Shown here one piece after another: positions 2,496 through 56,055 of a stretch of DNA of 64,000 bases. Both the position numbers and the translations under genes were made by a program. The notes under the pieces are model-generated. The model was not told the origin of the DNA. It was given only the letters and a program-made list of their open reading frames with translations, and searched no databases. Within the stretch, counting starts at the first letter, position 1. Each line of letters opens with the position of its first letter. This stretch comes from a virus: positions 8,020-72,019 of IMG/VR virus record IMGVR_UViG_3300022602_000075. One strand, 5' to 3'.

Positions 2496-2524
2496 ATATT
2501 ACACGACATGTTGGATAATGTCAA
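2496..2524 (-). promoter_or_regulatory. sigma70-type promoter for the late sigma gene
   Basis: TTGACA-N17-TAATAT on the minus strand. Confidence 0.7.
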
Positions 2525-2608
2525 TAAGTTATTGATTAAATTGGGGGTTTTTTGAACGATAAATATACGAAGACAGTCTATTTATGTCTGGAAAAAGAGA
2601 ACTAACAT

Positions 2609-3979
2609 ATGGCAACAGGGTCGGCTACAAAAACTACTAATAGCGGTTGGACAGTAACAACAGTTTATGATACAGCCACATCACAAGGGGTAATGACTTT
2701 TACTGGGCCAAATGGAGAAGTCGTTACTTATACTTCCGGTGCTGGTCAGGGCACCATCGAAAGTGCCTTTCAGGCTGCAGGAATACCGATACCTAATGGA
2801 CTTGCCCTTACAGGATTGTCTACGCTTACGGCTGCTAGATTTTATGCAAACCAGGCAGCACAAGCCGGGGCATCCGAATCAGCGGCTACCCCGGTTTCGC
2901 CTGTTGCAGACACTACAGCAAATGCAGCACAGACAACCGCGGTAACTGATTCAGGCGCAAACGCCACTCCAACCCAAGGAACGACACCAGAAACTCCGCC
3001 GGCTGACACGCTACAAGAAGTGCAGGTAACGGCACAACCTGTTCCAACTCAAGGAACAGAACCTCTTCCCGTACCGTCTGGTGATTTAGGAGAAATTGTT
3101 GTAACAGCACCCCGAGATACAGGTGAAGACACTGATAGTTCTTCCGATTCAGAAAGTGACGGAATTAGCGGAGATGAACTTAGCGCCCAAGAACAGGCTG
3201 CACTACAAGAGGCTACTAATTTTGCATTAGGTAGAGATTGGAGAGTAAGATTAGCATTGGCTCCGGGATCTAATTATCTTTACAACGCTAACCCTCCAGG
3301 AATATTGGGCCCCTTAAAAGCCACACAAGGTGTTATATTTCCGTACACTCCAGATATTCAGGTTGCGTATACAAGCAACTACGAATCGCTTGCCCTTACG
3401 CACAGTAACTACAAGATATTTCAATACCAAAGCAGCGGAGTAGATCAGGTAACAATCTCATGTCCATTTACTGCTCAAGATACTAGCGAAGCACTTTATC
3501 TTTTAGCAGTAATACATTTTTTCAGAACTGCAACAAAGATGTTTTATGGTCAAGATCAAGATCCTGTTTCAGGTCTACCCCCTCCTTTGTGCTATCTGTA
3601 CGGTTTAGGAGCATTTCAATTTGACAATCACCCGCTAGTAATTAGCAACTTTACTTATTCTCTACCCAACGAAGTAGACTATATAAGAGTAAGTACAAAC
3701 ACTGTTCAACCTGGTGTAGGAACTACTGGTAGTAATTTTCCTACTAGTTTACCTGAACTAATACAACAAACTCGTTTAGGAAGTATAGCACCGGGGGGCA
3801 CGGTACAACCTGTTGATTTTGGGATACCTAGTACCGGAACTGTTCCTGCTACTTATGTACCAACTATGATGACCATGTCAATTACTTGCTACCCAATCGT
3901 AAGCAGAAATGACATTAGTAATAACTTTAGCGTTAAGAAATATGCAACCGGTGAACTGACAACTAGAGGATTTTGGTAA
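2609..3979 (+). CDS. Baseplate/tail-tube-initiator-like protein with a long low-complexity N-terminal region
   Basis: C-terminal domain (FPYTPDIQV..THSNY..GLPPPLCYL..LPNEVDYI) resembles tube-fold baseplate proteins; first gene of the baseplate operon. Confidence 0.6.
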   Translation: MATGSATKTTNSGWTVTTVYDTATSQGVMTFTGPNGEVVTYTSGAGQGTIESAFQAAGIPIPNGLALTGLSTLTAARFYANQAAQAGASESAATPVSPVADTTANAAQTTAVTDSGANATPTQGTTPETPPADTLQEVQVTAQPVPTQGTEPLPVPSGDLGEIVVTAPRDTGEDTDSSSDSESDGISGDELSAQEQAALQEATNFALGRDWRVRLALAPGSNYLYNANPPGILGPLKATQGVIFPYTPDIQVAYTSNYESLALTHSNYKIFQYQSSGVDQVTISCPFTAQDTSEALYLLAVIHFFRTATKMFYGQDQDPVSGLPPPLCYLYGLGAFQFDNHPLVISNFTYSLPNEVDYIRVSTNTVQPGVGTTGSNFPTSLPELIQQTRLGSIAPGGTVQPVDFGIPSTGTVPATYVPTMMTMSITCYPIVSRNDISNNFSVKKYATGELTTRGFW

Positions 3980-24200: not shown

Positions 24201-27200
24201 CGGTGGTGCAGAGTACGGTCAAGTATATGGCACATCACCAGTAGCAACTACTGCTACTCGCACAATACTGATTAATGGCTTTGCTGCAACTATACCTTCT
24301 GGTGCTAATGCAGCAGTAGCAGCAAACACTATTAATCAAACTAATATTATCAACATTACTGCTAGTGCAACTAGCGACAATAAACTAGTTATTAGTTTAA
24401 CCAATCCTGCTTTAGCACAGGCTAATGAAAAATTACTAGTGACGGCACTAAACAGTTCAGCATTGACTGAATTAGGAGTTAATACATACACTCAAACACA
24501 AGTTGTGCTATGCCCACATACAGAAGGGCCAACACAATTTGGTACTGTAGTCAAGTTCAATGAGTCGGGATCATTTGTAGCCAGTGCACCAGTTGGCACT
24601 AGATATGAAGATACGACATTTGATGTTGTAGATTATCCTGATCAGGATACAATCTTTGACAACAATACTACACAATTTATTGAGTCGTTCCCAAATGCTG
24701 GCGCAGTTTACATGTTTGATTATTTGGGTAACTACAACGAAACTCTACAAAATCCTGGATCATTTGTATATGCTCAAAGTGTAAATGCACCAAATCTAAC
24801 ATACGGTCCTCAGCCGCGTTACGGCACTGCTATTGACTTTGTTAGCAATCGAGTTGTAGTTGGCACACCAAATATGTACAATTATGACATTAGTGCAACT
24901 ACACTAACAGCCGGAGTAACATATACTATTGTATTCGTAGGAACAACAGACTTTACTGCAATTGGTGCTGTTTCGAACACGGTTGGTGTTACATTCGTTG
25001 CTACAGGGCCGGCTTCTGGTTCAGGATTTGCTACTGACGGTGATTTAGTAAGTTATGGTCAAGTAATTTCTTACACTAATTCTGTTGGTCAACAAGACTG
25101 GGAAGTTTACAGACAAACTGCACCAATTGTTGATACTGCAAGAATTGGGTACATGCAGATTTTCAGCGCACAAACTAATAACACATTAGTAAACTTAGAC
25201 TACTTTGATCCATTGCAGGACAAGTTATTAGGTGCAGTAGCAGAAAACATTGATGTTATTTCAAACAATGATCCTGCAAGTTACAATAATGGAAATGTAA
25301 CTCAACGTGCATTAGTTTGGGGTAAAGAACATTTAGGCAATATTTGGTTTAATACTTCTAATGTTAGATTCGTAAACTATCACCAAGATGATGTAGTATA
25401 TAACAGTAAGTATTGGGGTGCGGTATTCCCTGGTAGTGATGTTGCAGTATATACTTGGGTAGCAAGCAATAACCCACCTGCAAACTATCAGGGCCCGGGC
25501 ACACCATATAACACTAACCTATACACGATAGAAACTATATTAAATGCCTCACAATCAGCAGTACCTGTTTATTACTTCTGGGTAAGAAACACTAGTATTA
25601 TCTTTAGTGAACAAGGAAAGACTCTATCTGACACCGTGCTGCAATCATATATCAGCAGTCCTCAAAACTCAGGTATAAGTTACATTTCTCCAATACTACC
25701 TAATGTATTCTCAGTGTATAATTCACAGCAGTACTTGAACGGTAATGATAGTGTGCTGAATGTGGGTTATGCTACTGGTGTGACTAACGATCAATATCAC
25801 ACTGAATACTCACTCATTAGAGAAAATTATCCTGATGACTTCTTGCCAGGTTTACCAACTCTAGCAAATCCTACCCCAACATTACTATATCAAAAATTAT
25901 TGTATAGTTTGTCAGGCGTAGACGGAATAGGTCAAGTAGTACCAGATCCGTTCTTGCCAGTAGCAGTGCAATCTGGTGTTGCAGCACGACCAAGACAAAG
26001 TTTCTTCTTAGACAGATTCATAGCACTTCAAAATTACATTGAATTTGCAAACAATGTAATGAGCAAGTATCCTATCACTGAAATCAGAGAAAATGCTACT
26101 TACTTGTATGCTAAAGGTCCGTTCTACGACACATCTAATTATTGGGAGTTTATAAACTGGTGGGCACCTGGCTATGATAATTCTATCAGATCATCTACAG
26201 TAGTACCTTTCTACGCAGATTTGTCAACTTTAAGCGTTGCACCAGGTACTATTGTAAAAGTACAATCTAACGGTGCAGGTAAATCAGAGTGGTATATCTT
26301 AGTAGCTGGAAACGTTTGGAATCGCATAGGGTTACAAAACGGCACAATTCAATTCAAGTCTAGCCTTTGGAATTACAAGGATGCAGGATTTGGTTGGGGT
26401 AATAACTTCTTTGATACTGCGTCATTCGACACGTATCCTAGTGAAGAAACTTATTGGATAGCAAGAGCATTAACTGAACAGATTTATACTAACGAATTGT
26501 TGGCTTACAGAAATAATAGTTTGATCTTATTGTTCCAGTATATTCAAAGCGAATCTGTATCTTCGCAAAACTATCTTACTTGGTTGAACAAGACTTCATT
26601 AGTAGATGTTTCACACAACATCAGACAATTGCTTCCTTATGAAAACTATCAGTCTGACAATCAAGATTTCTTAGCTGGATACTTAGGAGAAGCATTACCT
26701 TACCACGTATTCATTAAAGAGTTTACATATGTATACACTGGTTCTAACACATGGGCCGGTAATGTAATCGACTTTGATTTACCAGCACAATATAACACTA
26801 CAATTGATCAGTTTGTATCACCTCAATTGGTATACAGTAATCCTGATAATGTTTATACATACTCACCAACGAGTCTAATTTGGCAGCAACCTGAGTACTA
26901 TCAGTGGTTTACTAATTATGGAATTAGTCTGACAGGTGAAACCAACTACTTGATCGGTGAAATAACTGCTTATTTGGGATTAGGATCTTCGGTTATTGCA
27001 GTAACAAATGCTTCAGGATTCCCATTAAATGGTGTAATCATGATTGGTGAAGAAAAGATTGCATACTCTACTGTAAACCGTGCAAATAATACTTTAACCA
27101 ACTTAGTAAGAGGTTACGGTGGTACTACTGTTAGCGTTCACTTCCCTGGCGAAAACATTTATATTGACTTGCCAGCAGTTCTAGTATTGAACGGTGGCAG

Positions 27201-30200
27201 AGGGTACACTAATCCACCTAAAGTAACTGCTTATATTGATACTTCAATTTATCCAGCACCTTCAGTACCTGCTCAATTAGAAGCAGTTATGAGTTTAGAC
27301 TCGGTAGTTTCAGTAAATGTTATCGATCCAGGTAATGGATATGCAGTACTCCCACAAATCATTATAGATTACGCTGAGCAAATTGTATTTGCAAGCACAA
27401 ATGTAAATGTACTGTTTAGTACTATTCAGATTCCTACACCTCTCTTACAAACTGGAGACTTAGTAAAATACGAAATGTCTCCAAACGGACAGGCTATTGG
27501 TGGAGTTGAAAACAACCAATGGTACTACATAAACGTACTACAAAGCGCGCCTGCTGTTGTTGTAGCACTTTACACAACTTACTTAGATGCAGTAAGTGAT
27601 ACGAACAGAGTATTCTTCTATAATCAAGGCTCGGGAACTGGTCATACTCTGAATTTAGGCGCAAAAGCATCTGCTGTTTCTACAGCCGCGCCAATCAGAG
27701 AAAACAATATAACATTGAAGTTTGACAGAACTAGTTATAATTCTCAAGTATCAGAATGGACTCCTAATGCATTTTATGGTGCGTTCTTTACTGGGGATGC
27801 ATTAAGTCAGTTACAAACTTCAAGTTCTACGCTGCCATTAAGTAGCACTCAGCCTGATATCAATTCTATATTAACTAGCGCACAAGGCTGTGTATTTGAA
27901 ATCGTAGACACTGGGAACATTCAGCAAGTTGAATGGTCTTCTTTTGTACGCACTGTGTCTGAAACTATAGCCTCAACAAATGCAATTAGATTAATTCTAA
28001 GCAGCAGTACGCTAGAAAATGCTTCAGGTTCTACAGTTGGCATGGTTGAAGGAATGCCGGTACAGTTTAACGGTTTTGTTGGTTCAAGCGGTATTGTACC
28101 AAACACTGTGTACTATGTGAAAGAAGTATTAAGTCTTACAGACTTTACTATTTCAGCAACTTCAGGCGGCAGCACGCTTTCATTGAGCAATCAAGTAATA
28201 ACTGGTGCTGGATTAAATTGCTTAGTTGCACAAGTAACTAATACTGCAACACTGACTATGAACTATCCTGGCATAAGAACTGCTACTTCGGTCACTGCTA
28301 ACAGTATTGCAAAACGTGGTTACATAACTGTACCGTTGAATTCAATTGGTACAGGTGGCACAAAGGGTATGTATTCTGGATTACCTGTATTCTTTGTAGG
28401 GAATGTATTTGGCGGAGTAGTAGCAAATCAAGCATACTATGTCACTACGGTACTAGATAAGCAAAATTTCACAATTTCCACTAGCGCAGACCCATACACG
28501 GTACAAGTAGAAGCAACTAATAGCAGTACCAATTATGTAACTTTGAATAGTACAACTGGACTTTCAGTTAATGATCCTATTGTTATTAACGAAATGGTTG
28601 TTGAAGGGCAAGCAGCAACTAGTTTTGGTAACATCGTTCCTTCTACAATTTACTATGTAAGTCAAATAATCGATGGTTTTAACATAACGATTTCTACTGA
28701 TTATAATGGTAGTACATTTGTGCTGTCTACAGTTTCATCCACTACTACAGTTACTGCTGGTTCTTTTGTAACAGGAGTTACTTATACTATTCTAGATTTA
28801 GGAACTACTGATTTTACTTTGATTGGTGCAGCATCTAATACTATTGGAGTAGTATTTGTCGCAACAGGAGCAGGAACTGGTACAGGTACTGCAACTTGCC
28901 GTTCTTTTGCAACTCTAGTAAGTCAAGCAAATACTGCACTTCTGACTACTTCTATTGGTGACATGACAATCAACTTGTCGCTACCAGTAAGTCCCGGACA
29001 AGTTAATGGTCAGTTGTTTACATTATACAAAACATCACAAGAATATTACCCAATTACATATACAGTTTCTAACGAATTAACTGGCTCAATTGTTGCAACT
29101 ATTGCAGGGGTTAATTATGCTGCTATATCTGCTACATATGGCACAGCAAATTTCTATGTAAACATGCCATTAAGAGTAAGTCACAATATTGGTAACTTGG
29201 TAACAGCAACTACTTACTATGTGACTAGCATTGGTGCAATAACAGTAGAAGTAACAGCAACTGCATCTTCTACAAATAGACTTACTTGCAACGATACTTC
29301 TGTACTCTACGCTAACATGCCAATCGTCTTTAGTGGTACAGGGTTAGGTGGAATCACAATTAGTCAAACATATTATGTAAAAACAATAATAGATTCAACA
29401 CACTTTACTATAAGCACTACACCGAGCGGTACTGTATTAACTCTTACCAGTGACACTGGTTCTATGACAGGCACTGGAGATGCGTATATAACACTATCGA
29501 CTTCGTTGGGAGGTGGCAACGTTTCGTTATCAAGTGACTATGGCCCAGTTACATATACACAGACACCTGTCACTCTGCCTGATATAGCAGTTAATTACTT
29601 AGTAGGTGGCTACTCTGTAACTATCGTAGCCGGGGGGCAAGGAATGGCTACAACTAATGTACTAACAGTAAGCGGTACTGAAGTAGGTGGCGTATCCCCT
29701 GCCAATGACGTTACTATTGAAGTGAATGGAGTAGATAGTCAAGGATCTATAGTAAGTTTAACAGTCACGGGAACAGTACCTGCTGATTCACAAAGCAAGT
29801 ATTACTTAAAAGTAACAGGAACAAATACATTTGAAGTGTATGCTGATCCGTTAATGGCAGTACCTGTAACAGGAATTGGATTCCCATACACGGGAGTAAA
29901 ATCAACTACTGCAACTACAGTTACTGCTTCCAATGACAGAGTTACTGTAGCAGATTCTACAATATTTGCAGTAAATGATTCAGTAGTATTCACTGGAGAA
30001 GTTTTCACTACAGATATTGTATTGGGTCAGACTTATTATATTAAGGCAAAACCAACATCAACTACTGTAACTATTTCTACTCTGCCTGGGGGTACTACAT
30101 TAGATATAACTGCAAATGCATCTGGTTCTATGACTATGGCTGCTTTGGGTTCGTTTGCGTTCTTGTATGAACCATTCTATTTTAACCCAAGCATTGTTAA

Positions 30201-33200
30201 GTTCAGCAATCAACTGTATCGCTGCATAGTTAGCAATAATGATTCAGAATTTGTTTATGGCAAGTGGGAACTATTAGATTCGGGTGATCGTAGAATCAAC
30301 GCACTAGACAGAATTGTTGGATACTATAAGCCTACAGTCAATATGCCTAGTTTCACGTACCATGAGACTTCACCGCTTCAGCCAGGAGTTTCAAGTGTTG
30401 ACTTCTCACAATTATTGACTGGTACTACTTACCCTAACAGCACATACTTAGGTAATCCGTTCCAACCATCGCAACAGTTACCGCTGAATGTAAAACTGCA
30501 AGATCAACCATTTATTGCAACTCTGCCAGCAGTATATGATGTACAAGGCTCAGCATTTACTTCAGGATTCGGCCCAGAAGAACTAGTACCTGGTATTGTA
30601 TCTGACAATCTATCTATGATAGTTAATACGCTACCGGGTAGTAATTGGGATCCTGCTCAATATGCACATGACGGTTATAATGTAGTATCTCTACAATTTA
30701 CACCTGCTTATTCAACCCAAACTGTTTACAGTTTTGATAGAGCAGTTCAAGTGCCCGCACAAGTAGCAGTATTTGTGATTAATGGTTCTACTCAATTGTC
30801 TACTAGCATCTATAATAGCATAGATTATACTGTTGATTGGGTAAACAGTACTGTAATATTGAATAGTCCTCTAGCAGCATCTAATACTCTAAGAATAGAT
30901 GTGTACGAAGTAGGCAATGGATACCAATTAGTCAAGTCAAGTACTAAGCGTGACCCTATTATACTAGATCCAGTTACTGGATTCAATGGAATTCCATTAG
31001 ATTGCAACTATGCCGGTAATATCAATAACGGCAACGGAATAGTAAGACCGGGTACGGCACCTATACAAACCAATGCTACTGCTACTATAAGCGCAACAAA
31101 TTCTATTGTAGTAGACAATGTATCAAGTTTCATATTAAACAGTCCAATTACATTCCAAGGTAGCACTTTTGGAAACATTGTAGCAGGTACTACTTATTAT
31201 GTAAAAACAATCAGCACTGTAACAGACAGTATTACGGTGTCTACAACATATGATATTTCAACCGGTATAGCAGGATCTACATTCCACTTAAGTGACGCGG
31301 TGGGTAGTATGGTCTGCATCATCGAAACTGGCAACGGAGTATTCTGGAGTCCTCCAGTCGTATATCACAATGGTAATAAACTAGTTTTGGGAACTATAAA
31401 TTTTGCGATTTCAACTTCAGCAAGCACAGGATACATAACATGTAACTCTACTTCTGGATTAATAGCAAACACACCTATTAAGTTTAGCAATACAATGTTT
31501 GGTGGCGTAACTCCACAAACAACTTATTACATTTCTCATATTTTGGATTCTTATAAATTTAGTATATCTGCTACTCCTGGTGGAGCACCATTAACATTGA
31601 CCGATGCAGTTGGTGGAGCATCGTTTATTACAAACGACTATGCTGCTGCGCTTTCGGCAGACGGTTTTACAGCCAAATTAGTGTTTGCTTCACTTTATGA
31701 TCCTTCAGTAGATTATATTACCTATACACTGTTTGGAGAAACAGTTCCTCAATATAGCTATACTATACCTGAAACTCAAGTCTTTTCAAATATCACAGGA
31801 TCTTCATTTACTTTAACTAATTATGTAGTTGAAGATAATCCTACTAACGCTATAGTAGAAGTAAATGGCGTAAGACAAACGGCTGCACAGTACACTATCA
31901 GCAGTTTATCAAACACCATAACATTCAATACTCCTCCACCGATCGGAAGTACAGTTGCAGTAACATCATATAACTTGACTGATAATCAATACTTTAATAC
32001 TCAATATGGTATTAGTGGTTCTTCTCTGTCTGCATCTACTACAGTTATAGTATCTGCTACAACAAACACAGTATCAACTTATGACCAAAACGGCACAGTT
32101 GGATATGACACTCAATTGTACGCAGAAAATCTAAACACGCTAACACTAGATACTGGATATAACACTTCAGTGTTCACAATAGGTCAAGTGATTGTGTTCT
32201 CTGCTCCAACTATCGGCGGTATAGTAGCCGGTAAAAACTATTACATAGCACAAATAATAGATTCTTCTACGTTTACTATTTCGGAACTATTAGGTGGCGC
32301 ACCAATTGCGGTAACTACTGCTACGGGAACAATGACTGGAAATCTAAACGGCATCACAGTAGCCGCGATTACTAATATCAGTAATGTCATATCAGATCCT
32401 CTTGCTACTACAACAGTAACTGGAACATCTTCTATAACTAACTTGATTACTTGTGCTTCAACTACTAACTTTGCTTTAAATCAAACTGTGCAGTTTGAGG
32501 CTAGTGTTATTTCCGCTACATCAATTGTTATAGGGGCAACATATAGAATTGAATCATTAGGTACAACTGATTTTACAACTATAGGTGCTGCTACAAATGC
32601 GGTTGGGGTAATCTTTATTGCTACAGGAGTGGGTACTGGTACAGGCACTGCACTATTGGCTACATTTGGCAACATAGATTTGTTGGGCCAAGTGTACTTT
32701 GTAAAAACTAAAGACAGTTCTACAACATTCTCTATTTCGGATCAAGCAGGTAACACAATTACATTAGGTACTGATTCCGGTTCGATAAAAGCAATAGTCG
32801 GTGGACAACCTACTATTAGAATAACAACTGGCGTACTTAATACTTTTGAAGACAATACTCTTGTTAGAATTGATGGAACATTGGGTTCTACACAATTAAA
32901 TAACCAGACGTTCTACGCTAAAGTAATTACAACTACTCAGTTTGACATTTACTCACAACCATACAGTCCTGCGTTTGGGGCTATTAACTCTCCAGTTACT
33001 AATGTATCTACTTGGCTTGGCGGTGGATATGCATGGAGAGATGGGCTATTCACTATAATTGATACCAAAGCAACTGCGACCGCACCGAATGGACTAATCA
33101 CTGTTAATTCGACTACAGAGTTAATATTGGGTACCCCAGTATACTTCACTGTTTCGGGAACAGCACTTGGTTCAACCATTATGGGAGGATTAATCGCAGG

Positions 33201-34128
33201 CAGAGAGTACTTTGTAAATCAAATTGTTCCTGGAACTGGTTTCTATGTCACCGAAACTAGAGGTGGCAACAATCTAGCACTTACTTCTGATACAGGTGGT
33301 GTCAACGTAACACAATGGCAACAAACTAATGTTGACCGTCTATGGGTAACAGTAAATGGGTATCGAGTTCCTTCTTCATCACTGCGTTTGAATCCAGGAA
33401 ATGATCTAAGCATACTAGCAAGTATTAATCCAGGTGACGAAGTAATTATTACTAGTATGGTGCCTTCGGCTACCCCAAATCAAATGACTTACTACATGAA
33501 TGTAAATCAACTTGGGGTACCGGTAGTTTACAATGCTAACATGTCTAAAACTTGGTTAGTACGTGGATTAGAAAGTTTAGATACAGTAATTTACGTCAAC
33601 GATGTATCACAAATTACAGAAACTATTGTCCAAAACAATATTGCACCTGCACCAGTTGGAGGAGTAATCAGTATAGGATTGAATGTAGACAAGAGAACAC
33701 TAACTAGCGTAACAGTTTACAACAACACAACTGGTCAAACTGTTCCAAGTAGCGCATATAGCGTTCAAATAGTTGACGCATCTCCTACTCTGCTAATAAC
33801 AGGGGGAGTCACTACAGGAAACTACTTGACGATAACTTCAATTCAGGGTAACTTAATCTATATTAACGGAGAACAAATTGTATTTGGAGTAGTAGATTTT
33901 GCCACTAACACACTTACCCAATTGCAACGTGGAGCAAATGGCACTGCTACACAGACATTAATCGCTCCGTATACTCCTGTACTAGGATTGCTGCCCGGCG
34001 ATCGATTATCTGATACTTACTATAATCAAACTTGGAATCCAATCCCAGGAATCTACAATCTTACTGAGGGCGACCCGCTACAGATAGCAGATACTGCCCC
34101 TGCTACTTTCTTAAATACGGGGAAATAA
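15280..34128 (+). CDS. Giant (6282 aa) baseplate wedge/virion structural protein with inserted adhesin-like repeats
   Basis: Follows gp6; N-terminal RTLDFLPEIFQT; contains Asp-box propeller blades, FG-GAP-like repeats and repeated beta modules. Confidence 0.75.
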   Translation: MAKVIRTLDFLPEIFQTPSNQQFLSATLDQLVNPPDLQKLQGFVGNRFGYGVNANDYYVTEPDATRTNYQLDPGVVFTKPGTSTATDFISYPGILNAINAAGGLANNNSRLFNSQFYSWDSFTNLDPLINFNQYYWLPEGPPAVTVAAATVFSAEDYVVTAEANGYNISVLGSDTGSINPTITLLRGGVYNFYVNQSTQFWIQGLPGVQGIDPTNPNQSVRQIYGVGNNGAETGIVTFTVPPANAQQQYILPGNNLVSLVSNIPYENLNGQLVSTIKNIDGVTSLNGMTVMFYDTGTPVNTNFYKIAYVGDPNNPTISLSVVSAIPVNQNINVVYGNTYGGLTFYLDNSNNIEQLPYISAPLDTLYYQDGSDPTRVGMIRLIESNVTNQLDINTQVLGQKNFTSTNGVVFTNGLKVQFNGDVVPSSYLTGQYYVQGVGTAIELLPVSDFIVSEPFTGDVLTPWDSTNWDIGNFSDTLYIPTYPDYITIARNSINRNPWSRSNRWFHIDVINATAQYNNDPSIATTFARQDNKAARPIIEFYPNLELFNYGSVGVSAVDFIDFRTTDCLNLVAGQPVYYPDVDVYTAYNANVFNPPVPTVGFTTPSPMGSINVANMRAVAISPTGVYVAVGYGTANSALYSVSTDGINWTTPASMNGVVVPAASMNSVTVNSAGLFVAVGGAGYPYYATSTDGINWTTPALMNGSSVYTQMRSVTVNSSGLFVAVGSDGSTYPLYATSTDGTNWTTPAIMNGSTSFAAMQAVTVNSSGLFVAVGYDGNQYPVYATSVDGSTWTTPTPMNGTTNPVRMLAVTVNSSGLFVAIGTDINTGYPVYSTSTTGSNWITPVAMTGSASGIRMTAVSTNYYGLFVAVGYDQNTVDGVAYRPVYSTSLDGSTWTAPAFMNNSIDPANIYGVAVDTIGGFVAVGDSGVSGVVSKSVIQLPSTSTTVTVPVASVTGTLEVGMYINDSQNILPPNTQITSITNHSGVLYIEVSWPNPTVLSGIIGVSLVADPSSNTNYALFPGARVIFAADPAQKAKIFVVNFSTVTQGSPPVITLAEAPDGQIVAGNVAAVIRGYNNQGYSFWYNGTAWVQAQQKITNNQAPLFDVFDSNGISFGNPAYYVGTSFKGSRLFSYAIGTGLADKVLGFPLSYSSVNNIGDISFDVSFNSDTFTYVNSSSPVTENVNTGFVYNTNSLTDHTRLLGWQTAVGPSVQYQVFEFNYVRNYVVPNNAFLLDVAPVASDVEPWPVLEVYVNNVLQPSTNYTVTTTSDSTTVVINIPNQITNTLVQILVLSDQVSKYAFYQIPINLSNNPFNTDITVTNVGDIRRQYASIFNNCPNTTGHVFGSNNYRDLGNLVPYGNVIIQNSASLALPATFLRNLDFNIFDALAYNSKKYVEYKNLIVYTVNSYPFDQRYDPAYVLNTAIDLITAAKDSSQSFFWSDMIPAKAPYASNAYTFKSNLDRTVYPLTQTYNFKTANYNGVLVYLSRTISGLTITKQLVINQDYTVSATAPSLEITIQLLAGDVVTINEYNQTYGSYVPNTPTKLGLYPAFIPEVVLDTGYQQPTYFIKGHDGSYNKLYGDYIPETDTLVDFRDQALLEFEKRVYNNLKLSNTIPIQAYEVTPGFFRTTDYSYDEWLEIYTPGFLNWVGQNKLDYKQQYYNSYNQYTWNYKKTTNKVDNSVIDIGYWRGVYSYFYDTTTPNTTPWEMLGYKNEPSWWTDRYGPAPYTSNNLVLWGDLAAGLDWNNGNPVVIPKAVRNGLLKVLPVDSQGNLISPFQSVVANYYTPSFEANWVVGDDGPVEFSYRRSSSWPFDLMRILALTKPAEFFNLGAWVDNYKYSEEFNQYLVGGRSHLVPNEIPVYGSGTPVTSYINWVVDYRKQYGVDATTTITTLINNLDVRLVYRLAGFSDQNLLNFYIQSTNPNSNNSSLLIPNESYQVLLYSNPPYSVLQYSSVIVQITNQGQYAVFGNSQNSAYFSTLVPKNDGQTSTTKVDSLSVTVPRNFTSTEEMVPYGTIFQTPQAVAIFLASYGAYLEANGATYEYQLGALPINWNQMISEFLYWVQIGWQPGAITTLNPAAYELTINRENQIVQPLSVQGANFVLNQNLYPIKNADLSIIRNGTQFSVTPLNQGDTISYGQFNLSNFENACVFNNTTMFGDTICDLVTGLRQNRLYLRGAKTASWNGTYTASGFIINQNNVVQWDPAAKYTKGQIVKYKNQYWVAQDIIQPSETFQQKYWLLSNYNMIQTGLLPNSSTNSLDSTYYYSNEQSALNTDTNLLCYSLIGYRQRDYAAIADLTDVTQVNVYQNLIKTKGSTNAVSAFKGATLPHGGIDYNVYENWAILSSNFGGVLNNNFVQFKLNAAELSGNPFIVGLTDGVSTTGVEQEVPLYSLYNYNYSSPPTSPNVLPTISQYVPSTLFPDAGYVNFNDVKMSSYFYSQLPTAVNQQGVIIPLTSFYVGDYVWLANYLNQWNVYTPISLGQVVAVTNNLNNTCTVTFSQMHNLKQYDLIAITNFNSAVNGYYTVNNVVDNYQITILLSLTSSSRQLIGQGVGMYLSPQRVTTPSQITNLPLDSSEFVKNTVWVDTNNDGGWAVYQKNINYQLEEEITQPLNDSLSFGSSVVYNSNLGGYLIGDPNLGNVYRYDLNQGTGGYDLFQTLTHAASFGSSMVNEGSIYVISQPTGTPTVYIYTINNSVLSDQLISYQAGITAPSGVTNWGSALALSGDTNWLYISDTGHNKVYVYNKQNILLTAGSFVTGETYTINSIGTTDFTAVGAIENKVGITFIATGAGSGTGTATQSTYKSSAIIDATGFLTTGDNFGYSIATDYYGDTVVIGAPDVDYSTDYQNWGSAYVYERSVQNFIAPYTYPLNSNPAPSFQLAWSPSAVQVSVNSVAVQASEYSISGSTLTYTGSLTAGDIINVSGNVFTKVQTLTTQNNPQVGVQFGLSVDTTAHAGEIIVGAPFELTQQLVEGAVYRFTNGGAEYGQVYGTSPVATTATRTILINGFAATIPSGANAAVAANTINQTNIINITASATSDNKLVISLTNPALAQANEKLLVTALNSSALTELGVNTYTQTQVVLCPHTEGPTQFGTVVKFNESGSFVASAPVGTRYEDTTFDVVDYPDQDTIFDNNTTQFIESFPNAGAVYMFDYLGNYNETLQNPGSFVYAQSVNAPNLTYGPQPRYGTAIDFVSNRVVVGTPNMYNYDISATTLTAGVTYTIVFVGTTDFTAIGAVSNTVGVTFVATGPASGSGFATDGDLVSYGQVISYTNSVGQQDWEVYRQTAPIVDTARIGYMQIFSAQTNNTLVNLDYFDPLQDKLLGAVAENIDVISNNDPASYNNGNVTQRALVWGKEHLGNIWFNTSNVRFVNYHQDDVVYNSKYWGAVFPGSDVAVYTWVASNNPPANYQGPGTPYNTNLYTIETILNASQSAVPVYYFWVRNTSIIFSEQGKTLSDTVLQSYISSPQNSGISYISPILPNVFSVYNSQQYLNGNDSVLNVGYATGVTNDQYHTEYSLIRENYPDDFLPGLPTLANPTPTLLYQKLLYSLSGVDGIGQVVPDPFLPVAVQSGVAARPRQSFFLDRFIALQNYIEFANNVMSKYPITEIRENATYLYAKGPFYDTSNYWEFINWWAPGYDNSIRSSTVVPFYADLSTLSVAPGTIVKVQSNGAGKSEWYILVAGNVWNRIGLQNGTIQFKSSLWNYKDAGFGWGNNFFDTASFDTYPSEETYWIARALTEQIYTNELLAYRNNSLILLFQYIQSESVSSQNYLTWLNKTSLVDVSHNIRQLLPYENYQSDNQDFLAGYLGEALPYHVFIKEFTYVYTGSNTWAGNVIDFDLPAQYNTTIDQFVSPQLVYSNPDNVYTYSPTSLIWQQPEYYQWFTNYGISLTGETNYLIGEITAYLGLGSSVIAVTNASGFPLNGVIMIGEEKIAYSTVNRANNTLTNLVRGYGGTTVSVHFPGENIYIDLPAVLVLNGGRGYTNPPKVTAYIDTSIYPAPSVPAQLEAVMSLDSVVSVNVIDPGNGYAVLPQIIIDYAEQIVFASTNVNVLFSTIQIPTPLLQTGDLVKYEMSPNGQAIGGVENNQWYYINVLQSAPAVVVALYTTYLDAVSDTNRVFFYNQGSGTGHTLNLGAKASAVSTAAPIRENNITLKFDRTSYNSQVSEWTPNAFYGAFFTGDALSQLQTSSSTLPLSSTQPDINSILTSAQGCVFEIVDTGNIQQVEWSSFVRTVSETIASTNAIRLILSSSTLENASGSTVGMVEGMPVQFNGFVGSSGIVPNTVYYVKEVLSLTDFTISATSGGSTLSLSNQVITGAGLNCLVAQVTNTATLTMNYPGIRTATSVTANSIAKRGYITVPLNSIGTGGTKGMYSGLPVFFVGNVFGGVVANQAYYVTTVLDKQNFTISTSADPYTVQVEATNSSTNYVTLNSTTGLSVNDPIVINEMVVEGQAATSFGNIVPSTIYYVSQIIDGFNITISTDYNGSTFVLSTVSSTTTVTAGSFVTGVTYTILDLGTTDFTLIGAASNTIGVVFVATGAGTGTGTATCRSFATLVSQANTALLTTSIGDMTINLSLPVSPGQVNGQLFTLYKTSQEYYPITYTVSNELTGSIVATIAGVNYAAISATYGTANFYVNMPLRVSHNIGNLVTATTYYVTSIGAITVEVTATASSTNRLTCNDTSVLYANMPIVFSGTGLGGITISQTYYVKTIIDSTHFTISTTPSGTVLTLTSDTGSMTGTGDAYITLSTSLGGGNVSLSSDYGPVTYTQTPVTLPDIAVNYLVGGYSVTIVAGGQGMATTNVLTVSGTEVGGVSPANDVTIEVNGVDSQGSIVSLTVTGTVPADSQSKYYLKVTGTNTFEVYADPLMAVPVTGIGFPYTGVKSTTATTVTASNDRVTVADSTIFAVNDSVVFTGEVFTTDIVLGQTYYIKAKPTSTTVTISTLPGGTTLDITANASGSMTMAALGSFAFLYEPFYFNPSIVKFSNQLYRCIVSNNDSEFVYGKWELLDSGDRRINALDRIVGYYKPTVNMPSFTYHETSPLQPGVSSVDFSQLLTGTTYPNSTYLGNPFQPSQQLPLNVKLQDQPFIATLPAVYDVQGSAFTSGFGPEELVPGIVSDNLSMIVNTLPGSNWDPAQYAHDGYNVVSLQFTPAYSTQTVYSFDRAVQVPAQVAVFVINGSTQLSTSIYNSIDYTVDWVNSTVILNSPLAASNTLRIDVYEVGNGYQLVKSSTKRDPIILDPVTGFNGIPLDCNYAGNINNGNGIVRPGTAPIQTNATATISATNSIVVDNVSSFILNSPITFQGSTFGNIVAGTTYYVKTISTVTDSITVSTTYDISTGIAGSTFHLSDAVGSMVCIIETGNGVFWSPPVVYHNGNKLVLGTINFAISTSASTGYITCNSTSGLIANTPIKFSNTMFGGVTPQTTYYISHILDSYKFSISATPGGAPLTLTDAVGGASFITNDYAAALSADGFTAKLVFASLYDPSVDYITYTLFGETVPQYSYTIPETQVFSNITGSSFTLTNYVVEDNPTNAIVEVNGVRQTAAQYTISSLSNTITFNTPPPIGSTVAVTSYNLTDNQYFNTQYGISGSSLSASTTVIVSATTNTVSTYDQNGTVGYDTQLYAENLNTLTLDTGYNTSVFTIGQVIVFSAPTIGGIVAGKNYYIAQIIDSSTFTISELLGGAPIAVTTATGTMTGNLNGITVAAITNISNVISDPLATTTVTGTSSITNLITCASTTNFALNQTVQFEASVISATSIVIGATYRIESLGTTDFTTIGAATNAVGVIFIATGVGTGTGTALLATFGNIDLLGQVYFVKTKDSSTTFSISDQAGNTITLGTDSGSIKAIVGGQPTIRITTGVLNTFEDNTLVRIDGTLGSTQLNNQTFYAKVITTTQFDIYSQPYSPAFGAINSPVTNVSTWLGGGYAWRDGLFTIIDTKATATAPNGLITVNSTTELILGTPVYFTVSGTALGSTIMGGLIAGREYFVNQIVPGTGFYVTETRGGNNLALTSDTGGVNVTQWQQTNVDRLWVTVNGYRVPSSSLRLNPGNDLSILASINPGDEVIITSMVPSATPNQMTYYMNVNQLGVPVVYNANMSKTWLVRGLESLDTVIYVNDVSQITETIVQNNIAPAPVGGVISIGLNVDKRTLTSVTVYNNTTGQTVPSSAYSVQIVDASPTLLITGGVTTGNYLTITSIQGNLIYINGEQIVFGVVDFATNTLTQLQRGANGTATQTLIAPYTPVLGLLPGDRLSDTYYNQTWNPIPGIYNLTEGDPLQIADTAPATFLNTGK
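17122..18060 (+). repeat. Seven tandem ~45-50-aa Asp-box (BNR-like) beta-propeller blades
   Basis: Repeated VTVNSSGLFVAVG...YATSxDGxxWTTP..MNG, also visible at DNA level. Confidence 0.8.
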
Positions 34129-51876: not shown

Positions 51877-52587
51877 ATGCAAAACATGATTGATATTAAC
51901 CAAACTCTAGACTTGGTAAAATTAAAATTTTACAACGAATGGCTGTACACTGCTCACATCTATGATGAAGGTGATGGGCAACTTCATCAATCAATCACTA
52001 AAGAGGTGGTTAATAAGTACATAGATCCTTTGAATTTACCTAAAGATGCTACGATACTAGATATAGGAGCAGGTCCTGGATACTTTTTAGATGAAATGAA
52101 AGAACGGGGATATACAAACTTGACTGGCATAGGGTTGAGTCCCGGTGATAACAAGATATGCAGAGACAAAGGACACAAGATTAAAGAATATGACATGTCA
52201 TTCTTACCTCAGAAAGATGGATATTATGACGAGAGCGTAGATTTTATATTTCTTCGTCATTGCTTAGAACATAGTCCATATCCTATTTTTACTCTTATGG
52301 AATACAATCGTGTGTTGAAACAGGGATCTAAGATGTACATTGAAGTTCCACAACCTGACTGTGAACGAAACCATGAACTTAACATCAATCATTATAGCAT
52401 TTTGGGTGCTAAGCAATTAAGTGCTCTTCTAACACGTACTGGCTTCAACGTAGATCGTTTTCTTGACTTTCAGTTTACTGCTTTTTTACCCAAAGATATC
52501 AAAAATCCGGAAGGGGAAAAGTTAGAAGTTATCGAAAAGTATTTTTGCATAGTTGTTACTAAGGCTCGCCCGTTAGACATTAAATGA
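51877..52587 (+). CDS. Class I SAM-dependent methyltransferase
   Basis: ILDIGAGPG, VDFIFLRHCLEH, RVLKQG. Confidence 0.85.
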   Translation: MQNMIDINQTLDLVKLKFYNEWLYTAHIYDEGDGQLHQSITKEVVNKYIDPLNLPKDATILDIGAGPGYFLDEMKERGYTNLTGIGLSPGDNKICRDKGHKIKEYDMSFLPQKDGYYDESVDFIFLRHCLEHSPYPIFTLMEYNRVLKQGSKMYIEVPQPDCERNHELNINHYSILGAKQLSALLTRTGFNVDRFLDFQFTAFLPKDIKNPEGEKLEVIEKYFCIVVTKARPLDIK

Positions 52588-52632: not shown

Positions 52633-53178
52633 ATGGCATCATATGTGTACACAGCGAATTCGTCACCAAACGCATCTGCTAATATTCAAACAGACAAGGT
52701 AAGAATTGCAACAACTAGTTCCCCGATCCAGCTTGTTGCAAGTTACCCAAATGTTGCAGGTACAGGCACGGTTACTTGCGCGACCACTTCTCACACAATA
52801 ACTGGTTCAAGCACCACTTTTACTACGCAATTGAATACAGGTTACTGGATTGGTAACGCTACTGGCGCAACAGTAGGTATCGTACAAAGTGTAGCGAACA
52901 ATACAAGTGTCACACTTACTGCTAATGCAGCAGTAGCCATTACAGGTGCTGGATATACAATCAATCCATTTGGTGTTCCGTATCTAGTAGCAACCGCAAA
53001 TAGCACAATCATTCCTGCAAACTCAGTCAATAATAGTTTTATCGTAGGACAAGGAAACATTATATCTTATTTAAATGTTTCTGGTGCGACAGCAGCACCT
53101 TTCTCAATCACTGAATTGGGCGCAAATCATCCAAACACTGGTACAACTGGAGTATTACCTCCACCGGCAATCGCATAA
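52633..53178 (+). CDS. Virion structural/decoration-like protein
   Basis: Thr/Ala/Asn-rich beta sequence; TAAATA and AGGA upstream. Confidence 0.55.
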   Translation: MASYVYTANSSPNASANIQTDKVRIATTSSPIQLVASYPNVAGTGTVTCATTSHTITGSSTTFTTQLNTGYWIGNATGATVGIVQSVANNTSVTLTANAAVAITGAGYTINPFGVPYLVATANSTIIPANSVNNSFIVGQGNIISYLNVSGATAAPFSITELGANHPNTGTTGVLPPPAIA

Positions 53179-53235
53179 TTGACCTACTAAAGATTTAGTT
53201 TCTAAGAAGTAGCATCTCAGTTACTAAATACTTAT

Positions 53236-56055
53236 ATGAGTAACAAGTCAGGGCAAGGGGCACTAATCAAAAGCCCCTACGAAAAAACACACTTTGAAAC
53301 ACCTCAACAACTAGATGAGTTTGTAAAGTGCTGCGACCCTGATACCGGTTATCTTTATTTCATGGACAATTTTTTCTTCATACAACATCCTACTAAGGGT
53401 GGTATGAACTATCATCCATGGGATTATCAAAAACGTTTAATACACACATATCACAATTACAGATATAGTATATCGCTCATGCCCAGACAGTCTGGTAAGT
53501 GTTTTGGAATAAATACTACAGTTAAAATAAAAAATATTCACACCGGTAAGGTTGAAGAAATAACTATAGGAAAATTTTATGAACGATTTAGTAACTTGTC
53601 TAATTTGCTCAACAGAGATGAAGGAATTGCACTCTCATCTATTCAGAAAACACAATATGACAGTGACCAAATACAAAGAAGTCTATCCGAATGCACCAAC
53701 TCGGTGCCAGCAGTTACTGGAAGCACAATCAAAAAGGGTATCGGGTTCTGGAAATCCTGCATACCAACATGGAGGGAAACTTTCTCCGTTTTCTCCAAAA
53801 TTTATTCACGGGGATATATCGGAGCGAACTCAAATCAAAGCCGAACAGTCCCGAAAAGAAAATCAATCACATACTACTACTCTTGCATATTGGATGAAAG
53901 TTACGAATCAAGACGAAGAACAAGCGATTCGTATGCTGACAGATCGGCAAACTACTTTTTCTTTGAAGAAATGCTTAGAAAAATACGGGAAAGCCAATGG
54001 GTTGTTAAGATGGCAAGAACGGCAGCAAAAGTGGTCAAAGAATTTCAAAAAACAAAACTATTCAAATGTCTCACAAAAACTATTCCATTTAATAATGGAA
54101 CATTATGCGTCAGATCAAGTATATTTTGCGACCTTGGAACGGTCGGATATGTTAGACTACCAAAACAAGGAATATCGGCTTTTATTGGATTCAGGCAAGA
54201 CTGTTCTACCGGATTTCATCAATATAGCAACGAGAAAAATTATAGAATTCGACGGGATTTATTGGCATGGGCAACATATGGCGAACCCGCAACGGGAACT
54301 AGAAAGAGAACAGCAGATTATTCAAAGTGGATACCAGTTACTAAGAGTTGCCGAGGAAAGATACAAGAAAGATCCTCAACAAGTGCTTCAAGAATGTCTG
54401 AACTTTCTGAATCAGTAGAAAGAAAATTTATAGAGTCATACGAAATAACCGATTATGAAATAACCACTGACACAGGATGGAAACCAATAACACACCTCCA
54501 TCGTACTATTCCGTACAATGTTTGGGAAATTAAAACTGTAACAGGATTAATTTTGCAATGCGCCGACACTCATATTTTGTTTGATGGCTCAATGAATCAA
54601 GTTTTTGCAAAAGACTTAACTATTGGTTCGCATATTCATACTGTTAACGGAATAGAAAAAATTAAACATATTAGAGAAACAAATAATATTGAAAATATGT
54701 TCGATTTAACTATTAGAGATGAAAATCACAGATTTTATTCAAATGGTATTTTAAGTCATAATTCTACAAGTGCTGCCGGATACTTGTTGTGGTACGCCAT
54801 GTTCAACCCGGACTCTACAATTCTGATAGCAGCGCACAAGTACACTGGCGCTCAGGAAATCATGCAGCGTATTAGATATGCTTATGAAAACTGCCCTAAC
54901 CACATTAAAGCAGGGGTGACAACTTATAACAAAGGCAGTTTAGACTTTGAAAACGGTAGTCGTATTGTTTCGGCAACAACTACCGAAAACACAGGTCGTG
55001 GTATGTCTATTACGCTTCTTTACTTAGACGAGTTCGCATTCGTAAGACCTACTATTGCTGAACAATTCTGGACTTCTATTACACCTACACTATCAACTGG
55101 TGGTAAAGCAATCATTACTTCTACACCAAATAGCGATGAAGATCAATTTGCTCTTATTTGGAAGGGTGCTAATAAAACAGAAGACGAATATGGTAACGTA
55201 ACAGAAGTTGGCGTAAACGGCTTCAAAGCATACCGTTCACACTGGTCTGAACAGCCCGGCAGAGACGAAAAATGGGCTGAAGAAATTAGATCACAATTGG
55301 GACAAGATCGCTTCAACCGTGAAATGGAATGCGAATTTATCATCGCCGATGAAACACTGATCAATCCAAACACTCTAATTATGCTAGAGGGAACAGAACC
55401 TTCTAATAGAATGGGTCAAGTTAGATGGTATAAAGAGCCAACCAAAGGAAATTTATATGTAGTAGGGCTAGACCCAAGTTTAGGTACAGGTGGAGATCCT
55501 GCTGCTATAGAGATTTTTGAAGCAAACACTACGACGCAAATTGGTGAATGGAAGCATAACAAGACTAACATTCCCAGTCAAGTTAAGTTGCTAGCAGAAA
55601 TAAACAGATATATTGTAGAAAAGACTAACGAACCAAACAATCTATATTATTCACTAGAAAACAACTCTATAGGTGAAGCTGCGATAGTTTCTCTGAACGA
55701 GTACGGTGAAGCCAATATTCCCGGGATATTCATTAGCGAACCGGGCAAAAAGCGCAGGGGTTTTAACACCACACACAAGAACAAATTAGCCGCATGCGCT
55801 AAGTTTAAAACTCTGCTAGAAAGCAAGAAGTTAAAAGTTTATAGTCGCAGTCTGATATCTGAATTAAAGACTTTTGTGGCTTCAGGTGGCAGTTATGCCG
55901 CTAAAGTAGGCGACACAGACGATCTTATTATGGCTACACTCCTAGTCGTTAGAATTTTACAGCAGTTGGGCGATTATCACGTAGATTTGGAAACTCAAAT
56001 GCGAGACCACGACGAGTTCGTGGCACCCATGCCCTTCTTTGCCGTGCTAGGTTAA
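53236..56055 (+). CDS. terL: Large terminase subunit (gp17-like) containing an intein
   Basis: Walker A PRQSGK|ST interrupted by the intein; LYLDEFAF, ITSTPN, nuclease motifs GLDPS and DDLIMA. Confidence 0.95.
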   Translation: MSNKSGQGALIKSPYEKTHFETPQQLDEFVKCCDPDTGYLYFMDNFFFIQHPTKGGMNYHPWDYQKRLIHTYHNYRYSISLMPRQSGKCFGINTTVKIKNIHTGKVEEITIGKFYERFSNLSNLLNRDEGIALSSIQKTQYDSDQIQRSLSECTNSVPAVTGSTIKKGIGFWKSCIPTWRETFSVFSKIYSRGYIGANSNQSRTVPKRKSITYYYSCILDESYESRRRTSDSYADRSANYFFFEEMLRKIRESQWVVKMARTAAKVVKEFQKTKLFKCLTKTIPFNNGTLCVRSSIFCDLGTVGYVRLPKQGISAFIGFRQDCSTGFHQYSNEKNYRIRRDLLAWATYGEPATGTRKRTADYSKWIPVTKSCRGKIQERSSTSASRMSELSESVERKFIESYEITDYEITTDTGWKPITHLHRTIPYNVWEIKTVTGLILQCADTHILFDGSMNQVFAKDLTIGSHIHTVNGIEKIKHIRETNNIENMFDLTIRDENHRFYSNGILSHNSTSAAGYLLWYAMFNPDSTILIAAHKYTGAQEIMQRIRYAYENCPNHIKAGVTTYNKGSLDFENGSRIVSATTTENTGRGMSITLLYLDEFAFVRPTIAEQFWTSITPTLSTGGKAIITSTPNSDEDQFALIWKGANKTEDEYGNVTEVGVNGFKAYRSHWSEQPGRDEKWAEEIRSQLGQDRFNREMECEFIIADETLINPNTLIMLEGTEPSNRMGQVRWYKEPTKGNLYVVGLDPSLGTGGDPAAIEIFEANTTTQIGEWKHNKTNIPSQVKLLAEINRYIVEKTNEPNNLYYSLENNSIGEAAIVSLNEYGEANIPGIFISEPGKKRRGFNTTHKNKLAACAKFKTLLESKKLKVYSRSLISELKTFVASGGSYAAKVGDTDDLIMATLLVVRILQQLGDYHVDLETQMRDHDEFVAPMPFFAVLG
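53500..54762 (+). mobile_element. 421-aa intein in the terminase Walker A motif
   Basis: Starts CFGINTTV, block B CADTH, ends FYSNGILSHN followed by Ser+1. Confidence 0.92.
53579..54418 (+). CDS. Zn-finger plus Vsr/DUF559-like endonuclease nested in the +1 frame of the intein
   Basis: CLIC..HLFRKH and PDF..KIIEFDGIYWHG..GYQLLRVAE; AGGA 7 nt before the ATG and TAAATA at 53510. Confidence 0.88.
   Translation: MNDLVTCLICSTEMKELHSHLFRKHNMTVTKYKEVYPNAPTRCQQLLEAQSKRVSGSGNPAYQHGGKLSPFSPKFIHGDISERTQIKAEQSRKENQSHTTTLAYWMKVTNQDEEQAIRMLTDRQTTFSLKKCLEKYGKANGLLRWQERQQKWSKNFKKQNYSNVSQKLFHLIMEHYASDQVYFATLERSDMLDYQNKEYRLLLDSGKTVLPDFINIATRKIIEFDGIYWHGQHMANPQRELEREQQIIQSGYQLLRVAEERYKKDPQQVLQECLNFLNQ

Follow-up and report, generated by a model that had tools for sequence, protein, structure and literature searches.

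In a 64,000-nucleotide stretch of viral DNA (IMG/VR record IMGVR_UViG_3300022602_000075, positions 8,020 to 72,019; the whole stretch is called the window here), the large terminase gene (terL) is interrupted by the coding sequence of an intein, within which a complete nuclease gene lies in the +1 frame of the same strand, and the terL frame passes through this second gene without a stop codon. We regard it as very probable that the element is a class-1 mini-intein, inserted in the Walker-A (P-loop) codons of terL and splicing in cis, that carries an out-of-frame homing-endonuclease gene (HEG) for a protein with a Ros-type zinc finger and a Vsr-like/EDxHD core. The arrangement is best explained by a HEG of the free-standing type that has lodged in a loop after about 28 intein residues. 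The window comes from a virus record of 72 kb, whose completeness CheckV puts at 21%. A blastn search of GenBank phages with terL returned 33 records, each covering only 4-14% of the query, all within the C-extein and none in the intein or HEG, and none of them is a close relative. Because the best of these matches, confined to the C-extein, are to jumbo phages (67-76% identity), the source virus would be a large, possibly jumbo, phage.

The terL gene is a single open reading frame (ORF) on the + strand (53236..56055; 939 aa) and was identified as a T4-type large terminase by PHROGs and Pfam. The intein (53500..54762; Cys89 to Asn509, 421 aa) lies inside the Walker-A residues, with RQSGK before it and STSAAG after it. 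Its residues are those of a class-1 intein: Cys occupies position 1 directly after GK, the intein ends in SHN and Ser510 follows, and the same is true of all related loci with two open frames (dual loci). Block B (CADTH) is conserved, C354, A355, D356 and H358 being invariant in 30 sequences. Together with the AlphaFold2 fold of both intein parts and sequence matches of the C-terminal part to the VidaL (6vgv; E = 1e-6) and gp41-1 inteins in the PDB, block B identifies a HINT domain. The short N-terminal and long C-terminal segments match the short N-fragment and long C-fragment, respectively, of atypically split TerL inteins. A Pfam search of all 939 residues gave Terminase_6N, Terminase_6C, a C-terminal Intein_splicing stretch and nothing else, TerL residues 117-395 being free of any match. 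The element is not a canonical bifunctional intein, in that the nuclease lies in the +1 frame and ahead of block B instead of in frame between blocks B and F. A group I or group II intron carrying the HEG was ruled out, since the Rfam matches to 53200..55000 at E<=1 are just two, both weak and irrelevant, with no intron family among them, and since the host frame is open throughout.

The nested ORF encodes a recognizable nuclease. Pfam assigns ROS_MUCR to residues 2-42 (29.5 bits; cutoff 25.4) and DUF559 to residues 211-277 (30.3 bits; cutoff 20.6). A profile of 30 members of the nuclease family matched I-Bth0305I (3r3p; E = 1.7e-4) and Ros (2jsp; E = 1.9e-3) in the PDB, the former match covering the segment IIEFDGxYWH. 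Residues E223, D225 and H230 are invariant among the 30 sequences, as befits a Vsr-type core, and the window nuclease retains all 31 invariant columns of the family alignment. The AlphaFold2 model has a pLDDT (predicted local distance difference test) score of 81.5. Foldseek places 3r3p first (probability 1.00, TM score 0.67 on the target), followed by Escherichia coli Vsr (1vsr), and also matches Ros; 87 homologues were found in a large protein database. I-Bth0305I, which is reportedly encoded in a group I intron of recA, is thus alike in its nuclease core by profile and fold; the window nuclease differs from it in lying in intein-coding sequence and in bearing the N-terminal Ros-type zinc finger. 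The ATG of the nuclease falls in intein codon 27 (TIGKF-Y-E), upstream of block B. The Gly codon within the Shine-Dalgarno-like motif ahead of it is GGA in 10 of 11 dual loci, while GGA makes up 11-51% of Gly codons elsewhere in those genes. The sequence (T/A)ATAAATA, which we take to follow the T4 late-promoter consensus, stands at position -71 in seven of ten dual loci.

The openness of the terL frame over the nuclease is strongly non-random. Over 53579..54418 the terL frame contains no stop, the third frame 21 and the reverse frames 12-22. Permutation of synonymous codons within the nuclease ORF, preserving its protein and codon usage, gave 15.6 terL-frame stops on average and never fewer than 5, so that not one permutation in 20,000 was free of them. 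The longest off-frame open run is 282 codons in terL, compared with 97 in 16 other long + strand ORFs of the window. A stop can arise in the terL frame only where a nuclease codon ending in T precedes a codon starting with AA, AG or GA; the absence of stops is therefore explained by a strict codon rule that bars T from these places. In the window nuclease, T-ending codons occur at 0 of the 79 places before such codons and at 72 of the 199 others. The rule is unbroken in all ten dual loci tested and broken 31-64 times in each of 15 non-dual homologues. When each of the ten loci was permuted 2,000 times, 14-23 stops were expected and no permutation of any locus was stop-free. Chance openness inherited from a GC-rich origin found no support as an explanation: locus L052, at 55-56% GC, would still be expected to hold about 14.6 stops, and 0 of its 2,000 permutations were stop-free. 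L052 and L093, two deep dual loci, both come from phages of 55-56% GC, and their nucleases are longer at the N terminus by about 30-60 residues; the first in-frame ATG of L093 falls within its intein N-part, and the overlap there may reach into the splicing domain. These results bear out much of an earlier reading of the window made by a model without database searches (hereafter the original prediction). It had described a 421-aa intein that the terL frame traverses without a stop (all of its coordinates hold), a zinc-finger plus Vsr/DUF559-like nuclease at 53579-54418 in the +1 frame, an intein frame devoid of recognizable motifs over the insert, an off-frame open run too long for chance, and an insertion at an N-proximal atypical split site before block B.

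The genomic contexts of relatives were fetched by three alignment-based collection scans (viral, metagenome and intein-centred); single-protein locus searches and an exact-pattern scan yielded only near-identical relatives. Among the 86 rows of the viral set, 13 full-length nucleases have no host-frame stop and 68 rows have 21-109; the remaining five, likewise without stops, represent remnants or a partial copy. Six of the 80 metagenome loci lack stops, comprising three duplicates, one error-laden partial locus and two new full-length loci (L088 and L093). Once 76 duplicate or partial rows had been dropped, 91 distinct full-length nucleases remained, of which 12 are dual-coded and 79 lie in a terL fractured at the same site. 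The nucleases of the dual loci range from 62% down to about 40% identity to that of the window. The host frame that stays open belongs to terL in each of the dual loci, the intein begins with Cys after GK and ends in SHN before Ser or Thr, the nuclease ATG falls within T-I-G-x-F-Y-E (…ATAGGAGAATTTTATG…) and its stop within V-E-R-K-F. In nearly all nuclease loci the nuclease stands between the N-extein with the short intein N-part and the long intein C-part with the C-extein, and the nuclease family therefore belongs to the terL intein site. This is also the placement between split-intein halves that the original prediction had cited for Vsr-like nucleases. In the viral and metagenome sets there is no locus with few host-frame stops: counts over full-length HEGs are either 0 or at least 17. 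L188 and L199, with short HEG-less gaps and one or two stops, were considered as early split forms but are deletion products. L122, from the metagenome set, was considered as an intermediate that switches frames, but its terL contains an N and several frameshifts; it was treated as error-laden and excluded from the tree.

A census of the intein in 80 loci found it contiguous with a full nuclease in 9, contiguous with nuclease remnants in 3 (L171, equal to L002; L198, equal to L001; and L186, an independent deletion), contiguous with a decayed remnant in 1 (L237), split with a nuclease in 49 and split with the nuclease match absent in 10; in the remaining 8 no N-part lay inside the fetched stretch. 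L003 exemplifies the classic fractured form, in which the N-extein and intein N-part run to a stop and are followed by the nuclease and then by a C-part beginning 'MHKLSETVERKFI…'. The same terL of L003 is fractured again at 5381..6793, where the halves of another split intein enclose a gene for a GIY-YIG endonuclease (5492..6493), and a further terminase-like ORF lies upstream (2836..3432). In L185 (about 2470..2530) the intein is split and the nuclease wholly gone: the N-part ORF stops a few codons past TIGEFY, the C-part ORF starts in the +1 frame at the ATG that corresponds to the nuclease start of its relatives, and the two halves overlap. A second intein occurs further along terL in L001 (about 1335..1775), L010, L012/L013, L052 and L065, and is unsplit in L001 and L010; like the first intein it combines a short N-part with a long C-part, and it is weakly similar to it (22-29% to the window's C-part).

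Since most relatives are split, it may be asked whether the window's terL is likewise made as two pieces, one from 53236 and one from the ATG at 54394, that are joined by trans-splicing, the open frame being irrelevant. This ATG sits within the last codons of the nuclease ORF, 25 nt inside its end, and coincides with the start of the C-fragment ORF in split relatives (for example L003, 'MHKLSETVERKFI'), a correspondence that the original prediction had anticipated; the 79 split loci are, moreover, evidently viable. However, stops would then be expected to build up as they have in split relatives (17-109), and there are none in 12 distinct loci, in which T is banned completely before AA, AG and GA codons. 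A Met at the position of 54394 is, in addition, absent from the dual loci L014, L050, L012, L021 and L052. Production in two pieces is accordingly an improbable account of the window, even if it is the best placed of the alternatives to a contiguous, cis-splicing intein.

The two frames have evolved differently. Substitutions between dual loci cluster at the third codon position of the nuclease, which is the first position of the host frame: L007 and L009 differ at 3%, 2% and 12% of nuclease codon positions 1, 2 and 3, and their amino-acid identity is 96% in the nuclease and 86% in the host frame. The corresponding identities between the window and L014 are 62% and 31%, and distant dual pairs show about 50% in the nuclease and about 28% in the host frame (host-frame range 16-36%). 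The nuclease frame is the better conserved in 45 of 45 dual pairs. The pile-up at third positions and the uniformity of the pairs thus point to a nuclease under ordinary purifying selection and to a host frame that is merely kept open, constrained only against stops. In the AlphaFold2 model, pLDDT is 93-96 for intein residues 1-32, 27-46 for residues 33-306 and 91-96 from 307 to 421, and the confident fold picks up again exactly at the codon that ends the nuclease ORF. The terL-frame insert looks like a non-conserved linker, and the host-frame divergence and low pLDDT agree with the junk linker of the original prediction. The comparison of homologues that it had proposed as a check likewise came out with a stop-free host frame and a nuclease frame under purifying selection.

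The element bears the footprints of homing, namely an identical intein within diverged exteins and swapped nuclease cassettes. The window and L002 agree at each of the 576 intein bases that they share, against a nucleotide identity of 76.9% in the N-extein and 81-89% in the C-extein; the last upstream difference is at 53496 and the first downstream difference at 54798. A contig from run X5 shows 24 differences from the window in 53403-53496, one in the 1,263 nt of intein and HEG, and renewed divergence beyond 54797. The intein plus nuclease evidently moves as one unit. The sequences that match the element are spread over many freshwater metagenomes, at least half of its sampled words being contained in 15 runs (two of them possibly the source sample), and the virus record itself holds one HEG copy. 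The nuclease cassette evidently also moves alone, being exchanged within one intein backbone: L001 and L010 share their terL and intein backbone (94-97% nucleotide identity) but have different cassettes, a full nuclease 52% identical to the window's in L010 and a remnant 100% identical to it in L001, and a contig from run X3 joins an L009-type intein N-part to a window-type nuclease, past the deletion junction. The target of the nuclease may be intein-less terL at RQSGK/ST or, because cassettes swap between inteins, HEG-less inteins.

The 687-nt deletion that produced these remnants has the same junction in L001, L002 and contigs of runs X7 and X16, the contigs skipping from 53690 to 54378, and run X7 holds both the full form and the deletion allele. 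It leaves an intact 50-codon +1 ORF, which comprises the zinc-finger half and the last 13 residues of the nuclease (53579..53691 and 54379..54418), is identical in two different phage backbones and is present in several samples. This remnant might be neutral debris, a retained small DNA-binding protein or an immunity allele.

Deletion remnants in the related contiguous inteins L001, L002, L186 and L237 also lend some colour to the idea that the +1 ORF of the window is a decaying, untranslated relic and that the terL/intein frame alone is functional, as would fit a homing cycle in which the nuclease degenerates after fixation. Such a relic would hardly be expected to keep 279 residues intact with every invariant column of the family, to concentrate its substitutions at third positions and exceed the host frame in identity in all pairs, to conserve its Shine-Dalgarno-like motif and ATG, or to have spread horizontally in recent times, and we consider this reading very unlikely. 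We give as little credence to the converse, that the polypeptide read from the insert in the terL frame is a domain with a function of its own, such as regulating splicing or packaging, and the locus a true case of two-protein dual coding. The frame is indeed open in all dual loci and AlphaFold2 draws some helices in it (residues 89-104, 144-184 and 246-255), yet distant pairs retain little host-frame identity, the changes fall mainly at its first codon position, Pfam and pLDDT offer no sign of a domain, and natural in-frame deletions remove 229 of its codons in alleles that persist in several samples. An assembly or sequencing artefact, in which a pair of compensating frameshifts would mask a stop or an ordinary nuclease domain in frame, can be dismissed: nothing of the kind was found for the window (the related contig L122, with its frameshifts and N, does look error-laden), the contig of run X5, from an independent study, spans 53356..54797 without an indel, so that the sequence is not an assembly slip, and the 12 distinct loci share the two-frame geometry at 39-97% HEG identity.

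On the reading that we prefer, the contiguous intein with its out-of-frame HEG, ribosomes would read terL through the HEG to give a 939-aa precursor whose intein contains a disordered loop of about 270 residues. The N-terminal 28-32 and C-terminal 115 or so residues of the intein would associate, splice in cis and restore GK-ST of the Walker-A motif; we infer protein splicing from the essential insertion site and from conservation, and likewise translation of both frames. The nuclease would be translated separately from the Shine-Dalgarno-like motif and ATG embedded in the intein codons T-I-G-x-F-Y-E, its expression possibly driven by the late-promoter-like element in block A, and would cut the HEG-less or intein-less terL of co-infecting phages, whereupon repair would copy the element in. 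One nonsense mutation of the terL frame would then be enough to produce the fractured, atypically split form of most relatives.

Several observations weigh against this account. Production of the proteins and splicing are read from sequence only, and an insert of about 270 residues could slow the folding or splicing of an essential protein. The Pfam Intein_splicing match scores 20.3 bits against a curated cutoff of 35.8 and covers the C-terminal end only. Just nine aligned sequences span the insert, so its low pLDDT is weak evidence of disorder. The Shine-Dalgarno-like motif is weaker in L088, where the Gly codon is GGC. RNA folding of 53530..53630 is no better than that of shuffled sequences (z = 0.39), which gives no structure regulating the nuclease start and rules out one that hides it. 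The only contig from an RNA library (run X16, 177 nt) is of the deletion allele and may be DNA carry-over, and is not evidence of transcription. Finally, the dual loci are clustered phylogenetically, with one change on the best tree, so that 12 loci do not amount to 12 independent origins. The features of the locus are collected in Table 1.

Table 1. Coordinates of features at the terL locus, numbered along the window.
Feature	Position	Strand	Description or basis
terL N-extein	53236..53499	+	88 codons ending in Walker-A residues RQSGK; PHROG terminase large subunit, E 4e-111
Tract identical in window and L002, deletion aside	53497..54797		Mobile unit plus short co-converted extein flanks
Intein N-terminal segment	53500..53583	+	28 codons (CFGINT...ITIGKFYE); Cys1 after GK; kept in all dual loci
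T4-late-promoter-like element, AATAAATA	53508..53515	+	Putative; 71 nt upstream of nuclease ATG, within block-A codons I-N-T
Shine-Dalgarno-like TAGGAAA	53567..53573	+	Sequence; 7 nt ahead of nuclease ATG, in intein codons I-G-K
Homing-endonuclease ORF	53579..54418	+	+1 frame; 279 aa; Ros/MucR-type zinc finger and Vsr-like/EDxHD core
terL-frame read-through of nuclease gene (linker)	53584..54393	+	270 codons; no stop, no Pfam domain, no confident fold
Stretch deleted in related alleles	53692..54378		687 nt (229 codons), in frame for both ORFs; L001/L002 alignment
Intein C-terminal segment	54394..54762	+	123 codons (MSELSESVERKF...CADTH...SHN); split relatives start C-fragment ORF here
terL C-extein	54763..56055	+	Ser+1 onward: ATPase remainder and nuclease domain; Pfam Terminase_6N, Terminase_6C

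Closely upstream of terL lie a gene for an S-adenosylmethionine-dependent methyltransferase (51877..52584, +; Pfam Methyltransf_23, E = 7e-19) and, immediately before terL, a 181-aa ORF (52633..53178). In L002 a 1,189-aa repeat-rich protein (…ANVSG…) ends just before terL (3572 and 3658, respectively); the upstream ORFs thus differ, and the terL neighbourhood is not the same in the two phages. Elsewhere in the window, a single ORF of 6,282 aa (15280..34128, +) is giant for a phage record. Two pairs of opposite-strand ORFs overlap almost completely in regions of locally about 50% GC, one at 44030..45148 (359 aa on the - and 366 aa on the + strand) and one at 45200..46516 (289 aa and 431 aa, respectively); these may reflect chance in GC-rich or repetitive DNA, or antisense coding.

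Several published systems resemble the element and are compared here as far as the available portions of the sources describe them. In the fractured genes of Dassa et al. (2009; PMC2677866), the halves of a split intein flank a free-standing HEG of the Vsr-like or GIY-YIG type, HEG and C-part overlap by 6-69 bp, and putative T4 late promoters stand upstream of such nuclease genes; a freshwater gp17-like terminase is broken at an 'unusual point' and has a C-part of 122 residues. This terminase is evidently the split form of the window element, with which it shares a large terminase as host, an unusual break after motif N1 and a C-part of nearly the same length (123 codons here). The window also has the HEG placement of the fractured genes: its Vsr-like nuclease gene stands between the two parts of the intein, shares their strand and overlaps the beginning of the C-part with its 3' end. 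Most relatives of the window are arranged exactly as the fractured genes are. It departs from them in that terL is a single ORF with no stops instead of two ORFs, the nuclease being overlapped by the open host frame; the model in the available text of Dassa et al. (2009) is one of fracture or in-frame insertion, with no out-of-frame overlap. According to the accessible part of a review (PMC11766414), the N-fragments of AceL-TerL, GOS-TerL and Cat-TerL have 25-37 aa and the C-fragments 104-115 aa. The window intein resembles these in its TerL host, short N-part (28 aa) and long C-part (114-123 aa), a likeness of sizes only; VidaL, the closest in sequence of the inteins with solved structures, is atypically split as well. 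Those inteins are two-piece and splice in trans, whereas that of the window is contiguous.

Actinobacteriophage inteins with an endonuclease in a separate frame have been described in a preprint (Gosselin, Arsenault and Gogarten, bioRxiv 10.1101/2025.01.02.630785), the cases in the portion available comprising an antisense LAGLIDADG, an antisense VSR-like and a same-strand, frame-3 EndoVII-like nuclease in the 'HEN region' (HEN, homing endonuclease); VSR-like nucleases are said there to be known otherwise only with split inteins. The window intein is similar in being contiguous, in its host (often terL there) and in having an intact endonuclease in another frame, and the preprint, whose VSR-like nuclease also matches 3R3P, proposes the same origin by invasion of a free-standing HEG, with continued horizontal transfer. 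The present nuclease differs in that it is of the Vsr/EDxHD type, bears a Ros zinc finger and is encoded in the +1 frame of the same strand, at the N-proximal site of atypical splits; its phages are aquatic and AT-rich (33-40% GC), the openness of the host frame requires selection, and split-form homologues exist. Out-of-frame nucleases in inteins are therefore already known, and the novelty is smaller than the original prediction had assumed. The ShiLan-type insertion, which carries an HNH gene out of frame within a phage DNA methylase (Arsenault et al., 2025; PMC11855218), likewise has a homing-endonuclease ORF in the alternative frame of a segment devoid of host-frame stops; in the text available, however, there is no intein and the read-through peptide stays, whereas here the intein should remove it. 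A search of openly accessible papers, in their main texts, returned no Vsr-like nuclease that lies in the +1 frame of the same strand and occupies the atypical split site of a contiguous terL intein, and no report of the no-T codon rule.

The original prediction had taken the locus for an unsplit intermediate, and this was not established: the architecture is maintained by selection in 12 loci, the tree is unrooted and loci with few stops are absent. As far as the sequences tell, the arrangement is a stable architecture and not a transient state. In the tree of 91 nucleases the 12 dual forms represent one state change, the support for their monophyly being weak (13), and gain and loss of the dual form are indistinguishable because the tree carries no root. 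They fall within a clade of 41 rows (support 92), whose split members share the overlap geometry and frame in 23 cases, differ in 3 and are unscored in 3; in the other clade, of 50 rows, most members have spacers and a shifted frame (geometry and frame are the same in 7, different in 24 and unscored in 19). It is possible, and we advance it only tentatively, that the dual-coded contiguous form is ancestral and that atypically split TerL inteins of the AceL/GOS-TerL type arose from it repeatedly by nonsense mutation. A HEG would have parasitized a terL mini-intein and been recoded to keep the host frame open, and stops would have piled up after splitting. Since one mutation splits the gene while at least 17 stops must vanish against AT pressure to rejoin it, the order 'dual first' is favoured within the 41-row clade, although unproven. 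Consistent with it, the nearest split relatives keep geometry and frame in 23 of 26 scorable cases versus 7 of 31 in the other clade, and independent stages of decay occur in contiguous and split lineages. The first stop-free overlap is not accounted for by base composition: about 15 stops would be expected even at about 55% GC.

As an instance of two frames kept open on one strand of an AT-rich phage gene, the locus ranks among the longest and cleanest, and a checkable codon rule explains the openness as selection on 'silent' sites over 840 nt. It links the fractured genes and atypically split TerL inteins with the newly described inteins that carry out-of-frame nucleases. One nuclease family at one terL site is found in contiguous, remnant, split and nuclease-free forms, and these four states make the origin of atypical split inteins testable with natural sequences. 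To splice in cis, the intein would have to accommodate about 270 disordered residues at the atypical split site, which would be of interest for intein engineering. Mobility appears to be nested at two levels, the intein with its HEG moving into terL and the HEG cassette moving between inteins. If the dual form is ancestral, the locus would be a living pre-split state and would add to in-frame domains and fractured genes a third means by which a nuclease can travel with an intein, and the nuclease cassette that moves between inteins would be a parasite of a parasite.

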